Source of the DNA: Deltaproteobacteria bacterium
GTDB lineage: Bacteria; Myxococcota_A; Polyangia; Polyangiales; Houyiibacteriaceae
Assembly: GCA_034670305.1 (NCBI GenBank)
Contig: JAXMNT010000001.1
Coordinates: 256,001 to 320,000, forward strand
Reading direction: 5' to 3'
DNA: 64,000 nucleotides
The notes under the pieces: model-generated
The model's database searches: none
What the model saw: the letters and a program-made list of their open reading frames with translations, nothing else
Told to the model about the DNA's origin: nothing
In this document: one piece after another, positions 1-63,626 of the stretch
Layout: each line of letters starts with the position of its first letter
Position numbering within the stretch: position 1 is the first letter of the stretch
Made by a program: the position numbers and the translations under genes

Positions 1-466
1 CGCCCAGCCCACCGAGATGACCGGCGCGGGCGCCATCAACGCACCACCGACCACGAACCCCAGCGCGGAGACCGAGACCGAAACCGCGATGGTCGAACCG
101 ACGATGGAAGAACCCGCCATGGTCGAGACGATGGCACCGGTGGTGGCGATGACGACCGAGATGGCCGTCGAGACACCGATGATCCAGCGGATCGAGATGA
201 GCGCGATCATGCGCATCACCATGGCGGAGACGATGACCAGCACCATGATGCGTGCCCGCGGTGGACGCGGCACATTGGTCGTCAACTCCCATCCCTGGTC
301 GCAGGTCTTCGTCGATGGTCGCCGTCGGGGCAACACGCCTTTGCCGTCGCTCGCCGTGCCCGCCGGCAGCCACCGAGTGGAGCTTCGAACCTCCGACGGC
401 CGCACCCACCGCCAGACGGTCGAAGTCGAAGCCAACGAAACCGCCCGCGTCATCCACCGCTTTTAG
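1..466 (+). CDS. C-terminal part of a PEGA-domain protein, probably a membrane Ser/Thr kinase; 5' end lies outside the window
   Basis: Met/Thr/Glu-rich linker followed by PEGA-like GTLVVNSHPWSQVFVDGRRRGNTPL...VPAGSHRVEL; TAG at 464-466. Confidence 0.65.
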   Translation, partial: AQPTEMTGAGAINAPPTTNPSAETETETAMVEPTMEEPAMVETMAPVVAMTTEMAVETPMIQRIEMSAIMRITMAETMTSTMMRARGGRGTLVVNSHPWSQVFVDGRRRGNTPLPSLAVPAGSHRVELRTSDGRTHRQTVEVEANETARVIHRF

Positions 467-569
467 CGGGTCGCTGAAAAGCGACCTGCTCCCTTGCCCT
501 TGCCCTTGCCGTTGCCCGCGTCGTGGACGCCGTGTGTTTCGCGACGGCGAGGCCGCGAATCGGTCGGTG

Positions 570-653
570 CTACGCGGCGCAGCTCCGCAGCCGCGCGACG
601 CGTAGGAGGTTGTATGCGGCGCCGGCCAGGTAGGCGGCGAACTGTGTCTCTTG
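570..653 (-). pseudogene. 3' stub of an IS5-family-like DDE transposase
   Basis: Translates QETQFAAYLAGAAYNLLRVARLRSCAA*, resembling the AAYNLxR C-terminal motif, and points towards the TTTTCAGC..CTAG-type end. Confidence 0.65.
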
Positions 654-707
654 CGTCTGGAGACGACCTCGATCGCACCGTCGGGCCGAGGCATCGAGGC
701 CCGATAT

Positions 708-781
708 TTCTTGGGGGCACAGCCCCCAAACCCCGTCCCGGTGACACCGCTGGCTCGCTTCGCGAGGCTGCACGCTGTCGA
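708..781. repeat. Cassette A (74 bp, hairpin-rich), flanked by ATAT
   Basis: ATAT at 704-707 and 782-785; identical by eye to 42606-42679. Confidence 0.9.
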
Positions 782-785
782 ATAT

Positions 786-857
786 TCGACGCGGCGAAGC
801 CGAGCGAAGCGAGCAAGCCGTGTCACGGGGACGGGTTTGGGGGCTGTGCCCCCATGA
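786..857. repeat. Cassette A' (72 bp), head-to-head with cassette A
   Basis: ATAT at 782-785 and 858-861; closely similar to 6311-6381. Confidence 0.85.
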
Positions 858-1026
858 ATATCGAACGGGCTCTCGCCCACCTCGAGCAGGTCGTCGCGAT
901 GCTCGTCGCGCTGATCAAGCGATCTGACCGCTGATCCGCGGGCAAGGGCAAAGGCAAGGGCAGGGGCAAGGGGCAGGCTGCGAGAACGCCCTGCGGGCGT
1001 TCTTCAGCAGCCTGCTAGGCGGCTGC

Positions 1027-5103: not shown

Positions 5104-6104
5104 CCGACGAGCCGACCTCAGGCGCGTTCCGACTGGACGCGCTCACGGGCGACTGGCGGGTCATCTCCCCTGGCCGGCGCGGTGTGCCGGCGGCCGCCAC
5201 CAGGCTGCCCGAGCTGCCCGATCCTCCGGGACCTTGCCCGTTCTGTCCGGACAACCTCGCGCTCCAAGGAGAGACCGTCTGTCTGGTGGGCGACGACTGG
5301 CCGGTCCGGGTGGTGCGCAACCGGTACCCAACCGTTCAGGAGAGCGCACTTCACACCCCCGGCTCCGTCGAGGACGGGGACGCGTCCGACGCGGCCGATC
5401 GGTTCGTGCCCGCGGGCGGCGCGCACGAGGTCTTGATCGAAGGGCCCGAACACCTCGGCGACATCCCGACCTTCGACCCCGCGCACTTCGCAGTCGTTTG
5501 GCAAACCTACCTGGCCCGCGCCCGCGCACTCGCCGCGGTGCCGGGCGTCCAGCACGTCGCCATCTTCCGCAATCGGGGCCGGCGGGCGGGCAGCAGTCAA
5601 CCGCATCCGCACGGACAAATCGTCGCGACCCGCGCGCTCGGTCCGGGGGTCTCGCGGCGATGGGCACGCGCGGCGCAGCATCACGCCCAGGGTGGTGGGA
5701 CCCTGCTCGCCGATGTGCTCGAGGCGGATCGCGCTGCGGATCGGGTGGTGCGAGAGGAGGCGCCGTTCGTGTGGTCCGTCCCCTACGCGCCGCAGCTCGC
5801 CTTCGAGTCCCGCGTGTTGCCTGCGTCTGGCGCCGGCAACTTGCTCGCGCTGCCGCCGGGCGAAGTCGCGGTGTTGGCCGCGCTCGTTCAACGTGCGGTG
5901 GCGCGCACGGTCGAGGTGTCTGGGCGACCGGCGTACAACCTGGTGTTGCGCCTGCCGCCGGTGGCGGCGCTCGATCACGGCGCGGCGTTCTGGTCCATCG
6001 ACATCCTGCCCCGCGGCGGACCCGGCGCTGGCCTCGAACTCTCCACCGGTTTCACGATGGTCAGCACCCCACCCGAAGAAGCCGTCACCCGGCTGCGGCA
6101 ATGA
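5100..6104 (+). CDS. galT: Galactose-1-phosphate uridylyltransferase family (HIT) nucleotidyltransferase
   Basis: CPFC zinc motif, VVRNRYP, HEVLIE, GSSQPHPHGQ; GTGA overlap with the upstream stop. Confidence 0.8.
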   Translation: MTDEPTSGAFRLDALTGDWRVISPGRRGVPAAATRLPELPDPPGPCPFCPDNLALQGETVCLVGDDWPVRVVRNRYPTVQESALHTPGSVEDGDASDAADRFVPAGGAHEVLIEGPEHLGDIPTFDPAHFAVVWQTYLARARALAAVPGVQHVAIFRNRGRRAGSSQPHPHGQIVATRALGPGVSRRWARAAQHHAQGGGTLLADVLEADRAADRVVREEAPFVWSVPYAPQLAFESRVLPASGAGNLLALPPGEVAVLAALVQRAVARTVEVSGRPAYNLVLRLPPVAALDHGAAFWSIDILPRGGPGAGLELSTGFTMVSTPPEEAVTRLRQ

Positions 6105-6181
6105 ACTCGGTGCCGGTCTCCGAGGTTGGACCGGCGCAAGCCCGAGCTATTCCGATTCGGAATCCGGATCGCCGCTGATAT

Positions 6182-6306
6182 TGCTGGTCTCTCGCGGGGT
6201 TTCTGCGGGCTCGGACGCCTTCGGCTTTCCGAACCCTCGAAAGCGGCTCCGGACCTGCTCGTCGCTTCGCTCCTGCGCGGGCCCAGAGCCTCCCGCGCGA
6301 GAGACA
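6182..6306. repeat. Cassette B (125 bp MITE-like, imperfect terminal inverted repeats GTCTCTCGCG...CGCGAGAGAC)
   Basis: ATAT at 6178-6181 and 6307-6310; reverse complement of 34190-34314 with one mismatch seen. Confidence 0.9.
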
Positions 6307-6310
6307 ATAT

Positions 6311-6381
6311 TCGACGCGGCGAAGCCGAGCGAAGCGAGCGAGCCGTGTCACGGACGGGGTTTGGGGGCGGTGCCCCCAAGA
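6311..6381. repeat. Cassette A' (71 bp), overlapping the MMPL 3' end
   Basis: ATAT at 6307-6310 and 6382-6385; similar to 786-857. Confidence 0.85.
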
Positions 6382-8900
6382 ATATCCGGGCGGCGACGCT
6401 CAGCGCGCTTGGCCAGCAGAAGCAGGATCGCCGGCATCGTCAGCACCGCGCTCAGCAGACAGGTGACCTCGCTGATCGCCATCGCCAAACCGAACGAGTT
6501 GATCGCGAGGTTCGCCGAACTGTAGAGCGAGGAGTATCCGATCACCGTCGTCAGCGAGCACAGGATGACCGCGCCGCCCGTCTGCTCCACCGACGCACGC
6601 ACGGGATCCCGGCGACCGAGCTCACACTCCTGGCTGTAGCGCCGCATCACGTTGACGCCGTAGTCGACGCCGTTGCCGAAAGTGATCGGGAAAGCCACGA
6701 AGTTCAGGAAGTTCAACTTCATGCCGAGCGCGGCCATCGTGCCGCCCATCCACGCGATCCCGAGCACGAGCGCGAGCATGGTCAGGAGCCGTTCGCGCAG
6801 CTTTCGGAACGCGACGAGCGAGAGAATGAAGGTGGCGAGGAAGGCCCAGAAGATCGCGGTCGGCCCGTCGTTCACCACGGCTTGGATCACATCCGCGAAC
6901 ACCGGGGCCCGACCCGCGAGACGGGGCCGCGTCGCGCCCTCCCGATCGAGGTGCACCGCCCGCAGTCCCTTGGACCAGGCCACCAGGTACTCGCCATCCC
7001 AGATCGACTGGTTCGCTTCGACGACGAGGATGCGGCCGCGGGTCCCGTCGCGTTCGGTGAAGCTGCCAGCCACACTCTCCGGCAGGTCCTCCCGTGTGAG
7101 GACCTGGATGTCTTCGGGTGGCAGGTGCTCGTCGATATTCGCCTGGGTCGCTTCGTCCGTGCGCGGCCGCAGCTCCTGCAGGTGGGTTCGGATCAGCCCG
7201 AGCAGCGCACGCTTTTGTTGCTGCAGCTCAGCGTCGCCAGGGAGCAGGTCGTTCAGCGTGTGCACGTTCAGCCAGAGCGCGCCTTCGAGCGGCGCGTCCG
7301 GGTCCGCCTCGCCGGCCTCGGCCTCCAGCGCCGCCTCGAGGTCTTCGGCTTCGAGTGGGCTGTCGACGACGATGGCGATGCCGTTGCCCTGGGCGGAGCT
7401 GCCGACCATCTCGTGCACCCGCGCGTTGATCGAACGCGCGGTGGTGGTGCCTTCCCGTTCCGACTTCAGCTTCCGGAAGTCGTACTCCATCGCACCCTGG
7501 TCGAGCGCGTACCCCATCGCGCCGACCGACGCGAAGGTCACCAGCACACTGAACACCACGACGAGTTTGGGACTGGCGTACACCACGCGGGTGAAGAACC
7601 GCGCGAGCCCACTGATGCGCTCGACGTCGTGGCGCGCGTTCATGGGTCGGAACCGCTCGAAGCCCGCCGCCAGCGCGGGCAAGAGCAGCGTCGCGCTCAA
7701 CCAGCAGGCCAACATGCCGACCAGACCGATCGCGCCGAAGTCCCGGAAGCCGCGGAAGTCCGTGAGCATCAGCGAGCCGTACGCGAGCGCGGCCGCGACC
7801 GAGGCGGTCAGCGTGCCGAGCCAGACCGAACGGTGGGTCTCGGCCATCGCTTTGACCGCGTCGTTCCCGAGCCGGCGCTGTTCGAAGTAGCGCGCCAGCC
7901 AGATGATGTTCGGGTTCACCCCGTTGCCGATCACGATCGACCCGAGGAACGCCGTCGAGGTATTCAAGAAGTCGACCGAGAGTTCGGCGAACGCGAAGGT
8001 GAAGAGCACCGGTGGAATGAGTGCGGACCCGAGCAGGACGATCGAACGCGCGCGCCGGAAGAACGCGTAGATCGCCAAGAGCACGATGAGGATCGTGAGC
8101 ACCGTCGCGACGATGAGCTCCCGGGCGATCGCCCGCTGTTCTTCCAGCGCCACCACGACGTCGCCCGCGAAGCTGGTCGTCAGGTCTTCGCCGTAGGAGC
8201 TCGGGTCGAGTGCCTCGATGGTCTCGCCGACTTCTCGCAACAGGCCAGCCGAGCCGACCGAGTCCCCGCCGCTCAGATCGGTGCGCACGAAGACGACGAG
8301 CAGATCGCCGTCTTCGTGAAGGTAGAAGCCGCCGGGAAAACGTTCGAGCCGCTCCCGCCCCTCTTCGGCCTTGCGCTGCAAACGTTCGACCAGCGCGGCT
8401 GGGTCGGGCGGCTCCTCTTCCTCGAGGTCGACGTAGAACGGGTTCGCTTGCGCGCGCTCGTACTCGATGCGCGCTTCGAGCTCCGATTCCACCTCTTCGA
8501 GATCCGAGAGGTCTGCGTACAGGTGGCGGTGGTCGTAGACGAAGTCGGCATAGGTCCCGATGTTCCAGTCGACGCTCCCCACGACGTTCTCGGGCATCGC
8601 GTCGAGGCGCTGCACCAGATCGCGCGCGAACGACTGCAACGCTTCTCGGTTCTTCGACGGCGACTCGATCGCGATGGTCAGCGTGCTGAGGCCGCGGACC
8701 CGGTGACCGATCTCCTCGAGATCCTGCACACTCGCGGCGCTCTCGGGCAAGAGCGCGGTGAAGCGGCTGTCGAGGCCGAGGTCGCGGACGAAGAACACGC
8801 TGCCGATCGAGATCAAGAGCGCGACGAGCGCGAACGACCCAGCCCGCCGGTGCTGCAGCGCGGCGAGCTTCGTCCAGCGAGACGGCGCGTCGATGTTCAT
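6348..8900 (-). CDS. MMPL/RND family lipid transporter
   Basis: Two repeats of 1 TM + large loop + 5 TM; GNGVN and GNGVDY motifs; 850 aa. Confidence 0.9.
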   Translation of the reverse strand: MNIDAPSRWTKLAALQHRRAGSFALVALLISIGSVFFVRDLGLDSRFTALLPESAASVQDLEEIGHRVRGLSTLTIAIESPSKNREALQSFARDLVQRLDAMPENVVGSVDWNIGTYADFVYDHRHLYADLSDLEEVESELEARIEYERAQANPFYVDLEEEEPPDPAALVERLQRKAEEGRERLERFPGGFYLHEDGDLLVVFVRTDLSGGDSVGSAGLLREVGETIEALDPSSYGEDLTTSFAGDVVVALEEQRAIARELIVATVLTILIVLLAIYAFFRRARSIVLLGSALIPPVLFTFAFAELSVDFLNTSTAFLGSIVIGNGVNPNIIWLARYFEQRRLGNDAVKAMAETHRSVWLGTLTASVAAALAYGSLMLTDFRGFRDFGAIGLVGMLACWLSATLLLPALAAGFERFRPMNARHDVERISGLARFFTRVVYASPKLVVVFSVLVTFASVGAMGYALDQGAMEYDFRKLKSEREGTTTARSINARVHEMVGSSAQGNGIAIVVDSPLEAEDLEAALEAEAGEADPDAPLEGALWLNVHTLNDLLPGDAELQQQKRALLGLIRTHLQELRPRTDEATQANIDEHLPPEDIQVLTREDLPESVAGSFTERDGTRGRILVVEANQSIWDGEYLVAWSKGLRAVHLDREGATRPRLAGRAPVFADVIQAVVNDGPTAIFWAFLATFILSLVAFRKLRERLLTMLALVLGIAWMGGTMAALGMKLNFLNFVAFPITFGNGVDYGVNVMRRYSQECELGRRDPVRASVEQTGGAVILCSLTTVIGYSSLYSSANLAINSFGLAMAISEVTCLLSAVLTMPAILLLLAKRAERRRPDILGGTAPKPRP

Positions 8901-34139: not shown

Positions 34140-34545
34140 CTAGCAGGTGTCACCGGGACGGGGTTTGGGGGCTGTGCCCCCAAGAATATTGTCTCTCGCG
34201 CGGGAGGCTCTGGGCCCGCGCAGGAGCGAAGCGACGAGCAGGTCCGGAGCCGCTTTCGAGGGTTCGGAAAGCCGAAGGCGTCCGAGCCCGTAGAAACCCC
34301 GCGAGAGACCAGCAATATTCGACAGCGTGCAGCCTCGCGAAGCGAGCCAGCGGTGTCACCGGGACGGGGGGCTGTGCCCCCAAGTAATATCGAACGGGCT
34401 CTCGCCCACCTCGAGCAGGTCGTCGCGATGCTCGTCGCGCCGATCAAGCGATCTGACCGCCGATCCGCGGGCAAGGGCAAAGGCAAGGGCAGGGGCAAGG
34501 GGCAGGCTGCGAGAACGCCCGCAGGGCGTTCTCGCAGCCTGCTAG
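34140..34545. mobile_element. Composite element copy 2 (partial A, B, A cassettes + four-helix C-terminus)
   Basis: CTAG at 34140-34143 and 34542-34545; ATAT at 34186, 34315 and 34387; IERALAHLEQVVAML segment; (GGGCAA)n and terminal hairpin. Confidence 0.85.
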
Positions 34546-41890: not shown

Positions 41891-42448
41891 GTGGAACTGA
41901 AGCTGAATGTTGCGCTGCTGGTGGGTTTGGCGTTCGTTTGGGCCCACCTGACCGCCTCCACGACCGTCTCGCCGCTCGACGCGGACGACCCCGGCACCCT
42001 CGAGCTTCAGCGGCTCGAAGACGAGTTCGCCCTCCACCGAGACGATCCCCAGCTCGGCCGCACCCTGGCCGAGGCCTACATCGACCTCGGCCGACCTGGA
42101 CTGGCCATTGCCGTTTTGCGGGCCGGCGATCCAGCGCTCATCGAACACCCCTTGGTCGCCCACCGGCTGGCTCAGGCGTACGAAGCGTCTGGCCGATTGC
42201 TCGACGCGCTTGCGACCGCGAACCTCGCCTCGGCCCGCTGCGCCCGCTCGCTCGGCACCGTAGACGCGCCGAGCGGCACCCCCGTCCCGCGCTACACCTG
42301 CAACGCCCACCAGCACGCGGTGCTCTCCACCCACCGGGTGGCACTGAGCCACATGGTCGACTGGGGCGTGACCGCACCCGGCACCGACCCACGCGCCCAA
42401 ACCGCCTACGACCTCGCGATGCGCCGCGCGCGCATCGCGCTTTACTAG
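41891..42448 (+). CDS. Exported TPR-like hypothetical protein
   Basis: N-terminal hydrophobic segment; LAEAYIDLGRP and LAQAYEASGR TPR-like helices; GGAG RBS. Confidence 0.7.
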   Translation: MELKLNVALLVGLAFVWAHLTASTTVSPLDADDPGTLELQRLEDEFALHRDDPQLGRTLAEAYIDLGRPGLAIAVLRAGDPALIEHPLVAHRLAQAYEASGRLLDALATANLASARCARSLGTVDAPSGTPVPRYTCNAHQHAVLSTHRVALSHMVDWGVTAPGTDPRAQTAYDLAMRRARIALY

Positions 42449-43114
42449 CAGGCTGCTGAAGAACGCCCGCAGGGCGTTCTGGCAGCCTGCCCCTTGCCCC
42501 TGCCCTTGCCTTTGCCCTTGCCCGCGGATCAGCGGTCAGATCGCTTGATCAGCGCGACGAGCATCGCGACGACCTGCTCAAGGTGGGCGAGAGCCTGTTC
42601 GATATTTCTTGGGGGCACAGCCCCCAAACCCCGTCCCGGTGACACCGCTGGCTCGCTTCGCGAGGCTGCACGCTGTCGAATATCGGGCCTCGATGCCTCG
42701 GCCGACGGTCCGTGATTTCGAGCCAGGAGACGACCTCGATCGCGGAGCGCCGGGACATCCGATAGAAGCGGGCCTTCTCCTTGGGACTGAACTCGCCTGC
42801 GCCCTCGGCGATGTTGGCGACGACGGAAGTCGCAGCGCGATCGATCTGGTCTCGGAGGTGAGCACGGCCTCGCGGGAGGCGGACGCACGACACAGTTCGC
42901 CGCCTGGCCGGCGCCGCATACAACCTCCTACGCGTCGCGCGGCTGCGGAGCTGCGCCGCGTAGCACCGACCGATGCCCGGCGGCTTCGTCCCGCTGGGCA
43001 TCGGGCTCCGATTCGCGGCCTCGCCGTCGCGAAACACACGGCGTCCACGACGCGGGCAAGGGCACGGGCAAGGGCAACGGCAAGGGAGCAGGTCGCTTTT
43101 CAGCACCCTGCTAG
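42445..43114. mobile_element. Composite element copy 3 (longest; inverted relative to copy 1)
   Basis: CTAGCAGGCTGCTGAAGAA ... TTTTCAGCACCCTGCTAG terminal inverted repeats with CTAG at both ends. Confidence 0.88.
42529..42888 (-). pseudogene. Four-helix-bundle (23S rRNA IVP / Avd-like) gene: 5'-truncated, frameshifted, interrupted by cassette A
   Basis: LPRGRAHLRDQIDRAATSVVANIAEGAGEFSPKEKARFYRMSRRSAIE, then after the cassette IEQALAHLEQVVAMLVALIKRSDR*. Confidence 0.85.
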
Positions 43115-43941: not shown

Positions 43942-44847
43942 GTGAAGCACTTGGTTTGTCTTGTTCTGGTGTTTGGGGTGGCGTGCGGCGACGACGACGT
44001 GCCGACGGAAGACGCGGGCGCGGACGCTGCGACGTCCGATGTGGGCGCGGATGCGCCGGCGATCGATGCGCCGGTGGACGCGTGCGGATGCCCAGCGCCG
44101 GGGCCCAGCTGCTTCTACGCCGAACCCTGCGCGTGTGATTCGTTGGTCTGCGGCCACGACGCCGCCATGCCTCCGATCGACGGCGGTCCCGAAGACGGCG
44201 GTGGGGTCGACGCCTGCATGCCGCCTCCGTGCGCCCCGCCCCCCGATGGCTGCCGCTACGTGACGGACGACCCGTGCAACGAATGCGGCGACCTCGTGTG
44301 CGAGTGCACCGAAGACGAAGACTGTGCGCCCGACGGATTCTGCCGCGCGGTCGATGCCGACGTGTCCTCACGCGAGTGCCACGGTTGGGCCCAGGAGCGA
44401 GACCGGTGCGGTGGTTTTGTACTGCCCCATCATGAGGAACGCTGTGACCCCGTGCTCGGCTGTTTCTCCGATCCCCGCATCGCGGATGCGCCCGGCAGCT
44501 GCGCACTCCCGGCCGAAGTCAGAGACCTGGTGGAGAGCGAAGATCCTTTCATCGGTCACTTCATCGCGGCGACCGGCGGCGTGATCGAGGTGCTCAACCG
44601 CGGCTGCACCCGGCGGGCGTGCACCGAAGAGATGCCGTGCTGCAACGATTGCAACGGCGTTCAAGTCCTCTCGGTGGAAGGCGGCTCCGTGCCGCTGCTG
44701 CATCCCGATGGCACGCCATACACCTGCACCGGCAACGAGTGCGAGTGGACCTCGTGCGACACCGAACCCGGCCCCAACTTCACGGTGGTCGGCGACTACG
44801 ACGGAGACGGGCTGCGGGTGACGTCGATCTTCGGCCGCGGATTCTGA
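43942..44847 (+). CDS. Cys-rich lipoprotein
   Basis: GGAGGG RBS; VKHLVCLVLVFGVAC lipobox; CTRRAC....CCNDC. Confidence 0.75.
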   Translation: MKHLVCLVLVFGVACGDDDVPTEDAGADAATSDVGADAPAIDAPVDACGCPAPGPSCFYAEPCACDSLVCGHDAAMPPIDGGPEDGGGVDACMPPPCAPPPDGCRYVTDDPCNECGDLVCECTEDEDCAPDGFCRAVDADVSSRECHGWAQERDRCGGFVLPHHEERCDPVLGCFSDPRIADAPGSCALPAEVRDLVESEDPFIGHFIAATGGVIEVLNRGCTRRACTEEMPCCNDCNGVQVLSVEGGSVPLLHPDGTPYTCTGNECEWTSCDTEPGPNFTVVGDYDGDGLRVTSIFGRGF

Positions 44848-44853
44848 CCGGAG

Positions 44854-44990
44854 CTTCGGGTTCGGAGTCGGCTTCGGGTTCGGCGTCGGCTTCGGCTACG
44901 GCGTCGGCTTCGGCTTCGGCGTCGGCGTCGGCTTCGGCTGCGGCGTCGGCTTCGGCGTCGGAGTCGGAGTCGGAGTCGGCTTCGGCTTGG
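44854..44990. repeat. Degenerate hexamer tract (TCGGCT/TCGGCG/TCGGAG)n
   Basis: About 23 units right after the stop at 44847. Confidence 0.9.
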
Positions 44991-45019
44991 GTTCCCGAAG
45001 GCTCCCGAACTCTCTCCTC

Positions 45020-45057
45020 AACGAAGAACGCGCCCGCGAAGTGCTTCGCAGGCGCGC
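45020..45057 (-). terminator. Probable metK terminator hairpin
   Basis: Minus strand GCGCGCCTGCGAAG-CA-CTTCGCGGGCGCGT followed by TCTTCGTT. Confidence 0.55.
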
Positions 45058-49752: not shown

Positions 49753-50709
49753 ATGAACGCCCCCTCCGCTCCGTCGTTCTTCGAAGGTCCCGAGAAGAAG
49801 CTGGAACTGGCCGTGCTTCCGACCTTTGGATCCCTTCGCGCGCTGGGGGACGACTTCTGGAAGCAAGTGGTCGTGGCCGCCGACGCCCAGGTGCTCTCGA
49901 TCCTGCGGTCGGACGAGTGCGACGCCTATCTCTTGAGCGAGAGCAGCCTCTTCGTGCAGGACGGCTTTCTCACGATGATCACCTGCGGGCGCACCCGGCT
50001 GGTCAACGCGGCCCGGACCATCCTGCAGAAGGTGCCCGCCGACCAGATCGCGCTCGCGATCTACGAGCGGAAGAACGAGCACTTTCCCGAGCGGCAACAC
50101 ACCACCTTCTACGACGACGTCTCGAAGTTGAACGCGCTGCTGCCCGGCCGCGCCCTTCGGTTCGGCGACGAACACGATCACCACATCCACCTCTTCCACT
50201 CGACCCGCCCGTTCGTGCCGGACGGACTCGACACGACCCTCGAGATCCTGATGCACGGCATGCCGCAAGAGACCGCGGACCTGTACGTCGGGGCCTCGGG
50301 CGCACTCGCCGAGTCCACCGGCATCGCCGCGATCCTTCCCGGCTTCGAGATCGACGAACACGTCTTCGAACCGGCCGGCTACTCGATGAATGCGCTGCGC
50401 GGCGCGAACTACGCCACCGTGCACGTCACCCCGGAGACGATCGGCTCTTACGTCAGCTTCGAGACCAATGTGGACTGGCGCGGTCGCTTGCCCGAGCTCG
50501 TGCGCCAGGTCGTGGACGTCTACCGCCCGCGCAGTTTCGACGTGGTCGCCTTCGCGCCGAGCGGCGCAGACGATGAGCGCCTCGGCCTCGAGCGCCACCG
50601 CATCAAAGACCATGTCCGCACCGAGCTCGCCGGCTACCAAGTCGACTTCTGGCACTGCTACGAGCAGCTGAAGGACGCCCGCGACCCGGTCGAGCTGGCC
50701 ATCGGCTAG
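49753..50709 (+). CDS. speD: S-adenosylmethionine decarboxylase proenzyme, eukaryotic (class 2) type
   Basis: [22 protein letters not shown] (E-S cleavage), [23 protein letters not shown]; about 318 aa. Confidence 0.88.
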
Positions 50710-50713
50710 ACGA

Positions 50714-51020
50714 AGGAAGCTCGGAAGCGGAAGCAGACGCGGAAGCAGAAGCAGAAGCGGAAGCGGAAGCGGAAGCGGAAGCAGAAGCGGAAGCGGAAGC
50801 GGAAGCGGAAGCGGAAGCGGATTCGGGATCGGATTCGGGATCGGCTTCGGCTTCGGGATCGGCTTCGGGATCGGCTTCGGCTTCGGGATCGGCTTCGGCT
50901 TCGGCTTCGGGATCGGCTTCGGCTTCGGGATCGGCTTCGGCTTCGGCTTCGGGATCGGCTTCGGCTTCGGCTTCGGGCTCCTCGGGGCACGGGCACGGGC
51001 ACCGGCAAGGGCAAGGGGCC
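50714..51020. repeat. Compound hexamer tract: (GGAAGC)n, then (TTCGGS/ATCGGC)n, then (GGGCAC/GGCAAG)n
   Basis: Read directly; the pattern switches at about 50820. Confidence 0.92.
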
Positions 51021-51068
51021 TTGCGGCCAGCCTTTGACGCCTGTGCACCCGTACTCCATATCCTCTCG

Positions 51069-52172: not shown

Positions 52173-52392
52173 CAGACGGCCGAAGGCCGGCCTGCTCCCT
52201 TGCCCCTGCCCTTGCCCCTGCCCTTGCCCTTGGTTCGCTGGGGGGCATCGGCGTCGGCGTCGGCGTCGGCTTCGGCGTCGGCGTTGGCGTCGGCTCCGGC
52301 GTTGGCGTCGGCTTCGGCTCCGGCTTCGGCTTCGGCGTCGGATTCGTGTGATCGGGCACGGGCACGGGCACGGGCACGGGCCCTTCGGCTTC
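52169..52392. repeat. Mini relative of the composite element: CTAG-hairpin, (CCCTTG)n, (TCGGCK)n, (GGGCAC)n
   Basis: CTAGCAGACGGCCGAAGGCCGGCCTGCTCCCTTGCCC mirrors the element end ...CCTGCTCCCTTGCCC at 485-500. Confidence 0.75.
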
Positions 52393-53890: not shown

Positions 53891-54163
53891 TTGCCCTTGC
53901 CCCTGCCCGTGCCCTTGCCTTTGCCCGTGCCCGTGCCCGTGCCCGTGCCCGTGCCCTTGCCCTCCCTTGCCCTTCTTGGACCCCGAAGCCGATTCCGATT
54001 CCGAAGCCGAAGCCGAAGCCGAAGCCGATGCCGAAGCCGAAGCCGAAGCCGATGCCGATGCCGACGCCGATGCCGAAGCCGCTGCCGAAGTCGAAGCCGA
54101 AGCCGAAGCCGATGCCGAAGCCGATGCCGATGCCGACACCGACGCCGAAGCCGACGCCGAGCC
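53891..54163. repeat. Compound hexamer tract (GCCCTT/GCCCGT)n then (GCCGAA/GCCGAT/GCCGAC)n
   Basis: Fills the divergent intergenic gap upstream of nadB. Confidence 0.92.
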
Positions 54164-54215
54164 CGCGCCGAAAAGGCGTGGGACCGGATGGCAGGGGCGG
54201 GGTAGATTGCGGGGC

Positions 54216-62559: not shown

Positions 62560-62684
62560 CCCCTTGCCCTTGCCCGCGGTCCCCTTGCCCCTGCCCTTGC
62601 CCCTGCCCTTGCCCTCGGGTCGGAGTGAAGCCGACGCCGAAGCCGACGCCGAAGCCGAAGCCGAAGCCGAAGCCGAAGCCGAAG
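62560..62684. repeat. Compound hexamer tract (CCCTTG)n then (GCCGAA/GCCGAC)n
   Basis: Same order and polarity as 53891-54163. Confidence 0.9.
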
Positions 62685-62735
62685 GCCGGGCACAACGCGT
62701 TGCGGCCTGGGGCGCGTGGTACAGAATGCGTTTCC

Positions 62736-63287: not shown

Positions 63288-63626
63288 CTGGCAGCCTGCC
63301 CCTTGCCCCTGCCCTTGCCTTTGCCCTTGCCCGCGGATCAGCGGTCAGATCCTGATCAGCGCGACGAGCATCGCGACGACCTGCTTGAGGTGGGCGAGAG
63401 CCCGTTCGATATTTCTTGGTTCGCCGCCTACCTGGCCGGCGCCGCATTACAACCTCCTACGCGTCGCGCGGCTGCGGAGCTGCGCCGCGTAGCTGCCCGG
63501 CGGCTTCGTCCGCTGGGCATCAGGCTCCGATTCGCCGTCGCGAAAACACACGGCGTCCACGACGCGGGCAAGGGCACGGGCAAGGGCAACGGCAAGGGAG
63601 CAGGTCGCTTTTCAGCGACCTGCTAG
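63288..63626. mobile_element. Composite element copy 4 (left end and centre deleted)
   Basis: (CCCTTG)n, four-helix C-terminus (minus), ATAT plus only TTCTTGG of cassette A, transposase stub, TTTTCAGCGACCTGCTAG. Confidence 0.85.

Follow-up and report, generated by a model that had tools for sequence, protein, structure and literature searches.

Small non-coding mobile units that stack at a self-regenerating TA joint in a myxobacterial genome

The TA-targeting MITEs RUP, Correia/NEMIS and ERIC duplicate a TA dinucleotide. In Nostoc, SDRs of 21-27 bases were reportedly described by Elhai et al. in 2008; SDR5 is said to insert in the HIP1 palindrome, with nested insertions and with SDRs lying within other mini-transposons. 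In published work, the cut made by E. coli TnpA-REP lies at a dinucleotide, and in vitro the enzyme is able to build tandem BIMEs (PMC3333891); REPIN clusters arise by insertion into or beside REPINs (PMC3116915), MITEs carry 15-30-base terminal inverted repeats (PMC3733652), and MITEPpu9 modules move through circles (PMC12288879).

Here we describe units A, A' (a variant of A) and B, a family that behaves like REPIN/BIME or non-autonomous rolling-circle elements, yet falls outside the REPINs, the IS630-type MITEs and the IS110 modules. As in the REPIN/BIME-RAYT and TIRtron/TIRYT systems (PMC3116915, PMC3333891, PMC3733652, PMC6006769), they are short hairpin repeats in roughly 100 copies that form tandem and mixed clusters, with an apparent cut at a dinucleotide, a genome that holds Y1 HUH genes, and occasional in-frame insertions. 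Unlike REPINs, the units are not pairs of inverted REPs and their ends carry no GTAG/CGTC tag; their two ends are dissimilar, they do not appear to frame the Y1 genes, and they meet in any order at one exact, self-regenerating TA joint.

Other systems share part of this behavior. TA-targeting MITEs (RUP, Correia/NEMIS and ERIC, as listed in PMC3733652) are likewise 70-130 bases long, non-coding and strongly folded, with TA flanks and both empty and filled alleles; however, A lacks terminal inverted repeats, those of B are offset and 10 bases long, the search for an IS630 partner gave none, and unrelated units are stacked together. The Nostoc repeats SDR1-8 (PMC5861425), compared by description only, are also tiny structured mobile repeats, whereas our units measure 75-132 bases, use a TA joint and belong to another phylum. 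Non-autonomous Helitron2/DINE elements and other HUH rolling-circle elements show dissimilar ends, a near-terminal 3' hairpin, asymmetric terminal repeats (as in B), insertion at an A/T dinucleotide, tandem insertions and flank capture (as in unit D, below) (PMC5148889, PMC10288648), but they are eukaryotic and use Rep/Hel enzymes. Finally, MITEPpu9/ISPpu9 of the IS110 group offers tandem modules, a 2-base core and residence in other repeats; the long conserved target and the ends common with a parent IS that are reported for it (PMC12288879) were not seen here.

The units were found in a 64,000-nucleotide stretch (the window; G000:C1:256001-320000) of a 7.93-Mb assembly with 68% G+C, 96% complete, in 105 contigs. 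Its features are as follows.

464..1018, + strand: IS5/IS1182-like copy, internally deleted, with the 3' end of its four-helix-bundle (PF05635/TIGR02436) passenger gene; hosts array 1
707..782, - strand: unit A, 76 bases, period 78 with one TA; between TA 705-706 and TA 783-784
785..858, + strand: unit A', an A variant with a compensated stem, followed by TA 859-860; its left end abuts the left end of A
6181..6307, - strand: unit B, 127 bases, period 129; preceded by TA 6179-6180
6310..6382, + strand: unit A', 73 bases, period 75; between TA 6308-6309 and TA 6383-6384
6348..8900, - strand: gene for an 850-aa membrane protein (MMPL in the preliminary description), host of the B+A' array
34140..34545, + strand: second of the IS copies, also deleted; a deletion has merged its left end with a partial A
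34146..34387, + strand: array 3, all head to tail: partial A (34146-34186), TA, B (34189-34315), TA, A with a 6-base deletion (34318-34387), TA
42445..43114, - strand: third IS copy, retaining the greater part of the four-helix gene; hosts a single A
42605..42680, - strand: unit A, between TA 42603-42604 and TA 42681-42682
63288..63626, - strand: fourth IS copy, deleted
63412..63419, - strand: A right-end remnant beside TA 63410-63411, with a one-sided boundary; a deletion product

The arrays are those that the preliminary description had claimed: A(rev)+A' at 704-861, B+A' at 6178-6385, A alone at 42602-42683, and partial A, B(rev) and A at 34146-34390, the last A lacking 6 bases. The A stub it reported is also present, but about 2 bases to the right of the earlier numbers (ATAT at 63409-63412 plus 7 bases to 63419). 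Its rule that units are always bounded by ATAT is true of the window arrays, but not of the stub, which has ATAT on one side only, and not of the genome as a whole. As claimed, every inner junction reads AATATT: the four AATATT in the window are its four inner junctions, against a chance expectation of 0.43 +/- 0.67, and four were reached in 0 of 100 shuffles. ATAT itself occurs 16 times, a total at chance level, with 12 occurrences in the five loci. The sequences at 708-781 and 42606-42679 are identical and the two window copies of B differ by a single base, both as stated before.

Removing the arrays restores GATATC in both host genes, another earlier claim that stands, and empty four-helix sites do exist (12 in the assembly); the empty joint 703>858 is present in read runs X1, X3 and X6. 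The A at 42605..42680 preserves the four-helix reading frame, adding 26 codons, and in the membrane protein gene the B+A' array sits 10 codons ahead of the stop that the empty allele uses, replacing the tail. The window also contains long intergenic runs of six-base tandem repeats (44796-45045, 50692-51030, 52188-52359, 53947-54192 and 62589-62726).

Across the assembly, A, A' and B as BLAST queries had 304 hits at 155 loci, and a pattern scan recognized 103 full units, 69 A-type and 34 B, in 83 arrays. The arrays are mixed in unit kind and orientation, also at unique sites outside IS copies. A junction scan that required TA and T...A ends and took the better-folding strand as sense (junctions with other letters exist and were left uncounted) found 33 TA junctions between recognized ends: 24 head-tail, 7 left-left and 2 right-right. 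AATATT occurs in 28 of these, and 3 join E/F modules of another repeat family. The same 76-base A sequence recurs seven times in at least four contexts, so movement is recent. These identical copies, the 24 layouts at the GATATC site of the IS and the mixed arrays at unique sites bear out the proposal of a recently active, sequence-specific insertion of small units, either way round and in changing order, into a site that it regenerates. Part of the variety, namely the stubs, the 25-32-base palindromes and the partial units, reflects deletion after insertion and not additional kinds of cassette, a point that had been overlooked. We conclude that the units form a genuine family of non-coding mobile sequences, young and stackable, whose TA joint regenerates itself.

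Arrays outside the IS define the joint best. Among the 25 with both ends parsed, the bases around the dinucleotide are A..T in 18, A..C in 4, G..T in 1 and T..T in 1; the remaining site was mis-parsed and reads G..C by eye. After removal of 7 arrays flanked by a further truncated unit, A..T still accounts for 12 of 18, against a background in which ATAT makes up 0.9% of 61,966 NTAN sites. The dinucleotides themselves are TA/TA at 19 arrays, mixed at 5 (one of them the mis-parse) and TG/TG at 1; among individual units that could be parsed, 59 of 73 are flanked by TA at both ends. Because A..C and G..T sites (in the unit's own orientation) and the G..C site all occur, only a 2-base core fits every case. 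This excludes a 4-base ATAT duplication or a 3-base one. The earlier view that ATAT and TA duplications fit equally well is thus not borne out: at ATAC, GTAT and GTAC sites the units keep their T...A ends. The outer A and T of each junction are supplied by the unit, and the shared joint is TA, sometimes CA/TG, with a strong preference for ATAT; this TA may be duplicated at insertion or carried by the unit. Flanks beyond the target hexamer show no conservation. We also considered ATAT depletion as a signature of the system and rejected it; the 533 ATAT are rare, yet not below the order-2 expectation of 304.

The polarity of the core was examined in 75 units within 2 changes of their nearest neighbor, with right-side parse errors corrected by eye. 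In the left TA, the A is invariant wherever the end could be parsed (61 of 61), and the T varies in 7. At three loci the left side reads CA and the right side TA, and at one locus the left reads TA and the right TG; such pairs fit a cut that separates T from A and involves no duplication. In one lineage, the left side is TA and the right side CA. A near-perfect A' at C23:53810 has the same non-TA dinucleotide, CA, on both sides, which fits duplication. The constancy of the left A beside a varying T, with the three CA/TA loci, fits a strand-specific cut better than a symmetric duplication.

The host of most arrays in the window is itself mobile. The four-helix gene, which matches PF05635 and TIGR02436, is part of an element with TA(G)-flanked ends, whose IS5/IS1182-type assignment comes from a fragment, the 3' end of the transposase, with a score under the cut-off. 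Of the two "unrelated genes" described earlier, one is the passenger of a multicopy IS, a fact that had been overlooked, and it is because the gene rides this IS that one target recurs. The two halves of the IS form the two large contig-end clusters, with 87 and 70 of 210 contig ends. The element carries hexamer repeats inside both ends and has more than 100 copies, mostly internally deleted, with its body absent from the assembly; microhomology deletions are common among the copies.

Matches to the GATATC site number 49: 2 spurious, 12 empty, 28 filled with both anchors and 7 without the left anchor. The 28 filled copies show 24 layouts. In two read runs the empty joint has depths of 775 and 1019, and unique DNA of the window is matched exactly at a depth of about 14, a ratio that gives roughly 55-77 empty copies per genome, although such depth is no true copy number. 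With filled and empty copies this numerous, the IS is the main sink for the units. Two insertions lie at near-match IS sites (G000:C32:46490-46597 and C20:45081-45237), with the ideal hexamer's ATAT flanking both sides; the empty copies of these sites read otherwise in 6 of 6 and 2 of 3 cases, differing at one or two bases. The ideal flanks hint at flank conversion.

The ends of the 103 units read T(T/C)CGAC / TTGTC and AAGAA(A) / CAGCAA. A shares 3 terminal bases between its ends, A and B have no end repeat in common, and the 10-base inverted repeats of B are offset 2 and 6 bases from TA. A folds into a multi-branch arm plus a separate 3' hairpin and B into a three-way junction; the B at 6181..6307 forms this junction with offset 10-base subterminal inverted repeats, and its - strand folds better. 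DNA folds beat shuffles, with z of -2.5 to -4.2, and B as RNA reaches z -6.2 on the sense strand. Three-base loops of the GNA type, which are specially stable in single-stranded DNA, occur in the units. Compensatory changes include GC/CG in A (27 versus 14 of 41 distinct cores) and, among 21 long cores of B, GC/CG, TA/CG twice and GC/AT. G.T wobbles are limited to one strand, on which the consensus energy is also better. Judged from these comparisons, the fold may be under strand-specific selection; kinship and template switching could yield some of the covariation. An Rfam search of window 6100-6450 found no family, only one chance hit (E 0.46) under the gathering score, and the idea of B as a bridge-like RNA was rejected, since by eye its loops lack target letters.

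The period is divisible by three for 45 of 68 unit copies, or 33 of 56 when each distinct sequence is counted once, and 15 of 21 non-IS inserts have 3n lengths, with most non-IS sites not looking like coding sequence. Because the copies are kin, this excess is only a hint of selection to keep the frame. Separately, units lie in coding-like frames without a frameshift at G000:C23:53810 and C43:15815, and triple A-type arrays are fused in frame to the 5' ends of putative kinase-like and amidase-like ORFs (L041:3012-5273; L042:2765-4393).

Some shorter or composite sequences derive from the units, and others resemble them in part. Each of the 25-32-base palindromes consists of a pair of A right ends placed back to back, the product to be expected when two A units in inverted orientation collapse. 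At the IS site, 7 of 7 short palindromes are in copies deleted between the transposase and four-helix sites, and 0 of 22 in the other anchored type; 12 of 13 copies with this deletion are filled. We considered the deletion between the two IS sites as a reaction of the unit system itself and rejected the idea, since two insertions plus a hairpin deletion, or microhomology, suffice. Unit D, 191 bases, joins the tail of another four-helix gene and its hairpin to an A right end; its two loci (G000:C6:46284-46478 and C89:15142-15336) are 99.5% alike and are stacked with A and a palindrome beside a tRNA gene. The E/F modular repeat is older (about 190 hits), shares the GAA hairpin, has TA joints and receives A. 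A further micro-element, about 55 bases long with two hairpins, a GAA loop and a tail rich in A, occupies non-TA sites at the C11 and C15 Y1 loci and in E-family repeats.

Searches for the enzyme found 11 Y1 HUH genes of TIRYT-like type, each within its own long inverted repeats unrelated to A or B, which is the TIRtron layout given in PMC3733652. The Y1 proteins score nearer to RAYT than to IS200, with both scores under the cut-off. Remnants of A, B or E sit at the tips of the type-2 TIRYT repeat at 6 of 11 loci that have this repeat, one weak match excluded (G000:C55:37600-39170, C15:125270-127000, C29:47800-48170, C3:41475-41700, C18:22050-22240 and C48:36450-36630). These tip units vary in kind and orientation, so the tips may merely be targets. 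A remnant of the type-2 repeat also lies at window 55895.

In the assembly, resolvase, TnpB and DUF559 searches gave no match, GIY-YIG matched two long proteins only, and PF04986 (IS91) matched neither the genome nor the controls. Three tyrosine recombinases have no clear tie to the units; nor do three putative retron-like reverse transcriptases (G000:C23:85581-87260, C10:168215-169597 and C67:18010-19680), one of which has a partial A about 600 bases behind it. A long element with A or B ends, looked for in the assembly among lone end motifs and contig-end clusters, was not found.

Beyond this genome, close copies were absent from 40 relatives, and the A-A junction pattern gave 1-2 chance-level hits outside this genome among 400 genomes. 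The 3' hairpin of A occurs in 0 of 87 genomes of the same family and in 17 of 401 of the order, led by G399 (79 matches), G095 (31) and G101 (28). In these three the hairpin ends other small units, in tandem and mixed runs with different joints; such hairpin-ending families are found in G399 (L049, L064, L085-L111) and in G095, G101, G075 and G176 (L059-L070, L074, L075). Units of the G095 type sit between CTGA repeats at stop codons. Y1 matches number 6-11 in five hairpin-bearing myxobacteria and none in four comparison genomes, the bearers being kin and not independent. An A-like hairpin lies near 1 of 30 Y1 loci fetched from five other myxobacteria, and that gene has other REPs, as do the Y1 loci of other myxobacteria.

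A GTDB-wide search with the exact pattern gave 3 unrelated hits with neither enzymes nor TA stacks, IMG/VR gave 0 matches, and plasmids gave short chance matches only. Of 6 metagenome hits, 3 are chance and 3 are real (L078-L080); the latter, three contigs of one independent metagenome, show B joined to other modules and to host DNA with the same joint type. The literature searched, mostly outside subscription papers, held no description of the unit family and no mention of variants of the hairpin motif.

Tentatively, we favor a reading in which the units are non-autonomous, travel as single strands and depend on an HUH-type enzyme acting in trans. It builds on what is directly seen: the anatomy, the target, the arrays, the empty alleles and the compensatory changes. 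A, A' and B would act as folded single strands whose dissimilar ends, a left T(T/C)-stem and a right stem-A(A)GNA(A), can pair across the flanking TA. A transposase supplied in trans, likely of HUH/Y1 type such as a TIRYT-like protein, would cut at TA, with ATAT preferred, and the unit would be joined into a new site, probably via a single-stranded circle or nick-primed copying. With T as its first base and A as its last, every inserted unit would create a new ATAT at both junctions; as ATAT is palindromic, the next unit of any kind could then enter in either orientation, and stacks would grow. The multicopy IS would offer most of the harmless ATAT targets and spread filled copies, and later deletions between hairpins would yield the short palindromes, stubs and IS derivatives. 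By analogy, unit D, with its captured flank and A right end, resembles HUH end-bypass (PMC5148889). Also in favor of this reading are the ATAT bias of the target, the use of both orientations, the strand-specific covariation, the polarity of the core, the TnpA-REP and REPIN precedents (PMC3333891, PMC3116915), the 11 Y1 genes, the remnants at TIRYT tips and the lack of IS630, resolvase and TnpB matches. Counting against an HUH enzyme, the Y1 genes are framed by long inverted repeats of their own, the search for a long element with A or B ends came up empty, hairpins near the Y1 loci of other myxobacteria are rare (1 of 30), and A lacks the GTAG/CGTC foot of a REP guide. The A' at C23:53810 and the lineage with TA left and CA right also speak against it. 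The near-match IS insertions with ATAT on both sides are predicted by neither simple model.

A more far-reaching reading, which we consider rather doubtful, is that the units represent a class of micro-transposons, so far undescribed, that is defined by structure and lacks TIRs. A folded arm of any kind would become a cassette once it carried the common 3' hairpin or end grammar, and one enzyme, a TIRYT or an unrecognized nuclease, would stack cassettes in the self-regenerating site. Related hairpin families would have expanded separately in other myxobacteria, and 3n lengths would allow stacks to be read through in frame within proteins, the four-helix passenger among them.

It is unlikely that the units are degenerate MITEs of a TA-duplicating DDE transposase, either a lost or unassembled IS630/Tc1-like enzyme or the very active IS5/IS1182-like enzyme of the genome, with stacking produced by TA duplication and T...A ends. 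TA duplication with a preference for ATAT is typical of Tc1/mariner elements. Such a transposase would account for TA on both sides of 19 of the 25 non-IS arrays and TG on both sides of one, for TA-TA and TA-T-TA joints that resemble excision footprints (C23, C9, C27), and for the subterminal inverted repeats of B; the IS itself lies between TA(G) repeats. However, the IS630 (DDE_3) search gave 0 matches in the 96% complete assembly (the control matched in 5 of 14), and no collapsed contig-end repeat has such ends. The 105-contig assembly collapses repeats, so a DDE partner could be missing from it. The IS630/Tc1-like partner suggested in the preliminary description is without an assembly match, and the terminal inverted repeat of A is at most 3 bases. 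A and B have no end repeat in common, the IS ends are unlike both, and a double-strand substrate needs no strand-biased covariation.

Ranking behind the DDE transposase, and also unlikely, is movement without a dedicated enzyme, in which stable hairpins are copied into nicked or broken ATAT by microhomology template switching during replication, repair or transposition of the host IS. Clustering of the units in other mobile repeats (IS sites, E/F joints and TIRYT tips), the donor-like flanks at two near-match sites and the common microhomology deletions in IS copies all suit this mechanism. It sits poorly with exact junctions at dozens of unique sites, conserved end motifs and an at least 70-fold target bias. 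Nor does it explain why three unrelated sequences, A, B and D, have one end grammar, and the compensatory changes imply a reader of structure.

Quite improbable is transfer of the modules via circles by an IS110/IS1111 bridge recombinase with TA as the 2-base core, as in MITEPpu9. IS1111 elements have offset subterminal repeats, as B does. An IS110-like C-terminus, read by eye and presumably of that family by its motif, occurs at 3 collapsed contig ends. More widely, collapsed multicopy elements that we take to be IS110-like and IS66-like from their motifs occupy contig ends (C55, C71, C85; C50, C73, C83; C25, C68, C72; C11, C15, C21, C50; C2, C14, C51, C88), often beside hexamer repeats. However, the assembly has no full IS110 match, the visible end of the IS110-like element lies against CTAG instead of ATAT and does not resemble A or B, and the loops of A and B lack target letters. 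MITEPpu9 forms circles and tandem copies (PMC12288879). The targets of ISPpu9 are conserved (PMC12288879), whereas the flanks here are unconserved past the hexamer.

An origin of the arrays as artefacts of assembly, or as a single composite element in decay, is hardly credible: although the short-read assembly is broken at repeats and no whole array is spanned among the run contigs listed, the 28 filled copies have 24 layouts, mixed arrays occupy unique sites, unique contigs of X1 and X3 enter the array by 33 letters at 6385 and by 29 at 6178 (the latter under the 31-letter rule), and the independent metagenome L078-L080 has B in joints of the same type. No joint skipping the 6178-6385 array is among those listed; the contigs show presence, not absence, and the read analysis left out runs with a small share. 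The small probability left over after all these readings belongs to an enzyme outside those considered here.

The movement and mosaic formation of REPINs, BIMEs and SDRs are still poorly shown. The units described here, with young exact copies, empty alleles in dozens of IS copies and near-match targets, provide an unusually clean record of the reaction. If they prove to be MITEs of a lost DDE element, they would be a local curiosity. If, as the HUH reading allows, a TIRYT is the enzyme, they would be the first substrate for the unstudied TIRYT class, and a 75-base unit that scarlessly enters its own regenerated site would be a minimal tool for iterative insertion.
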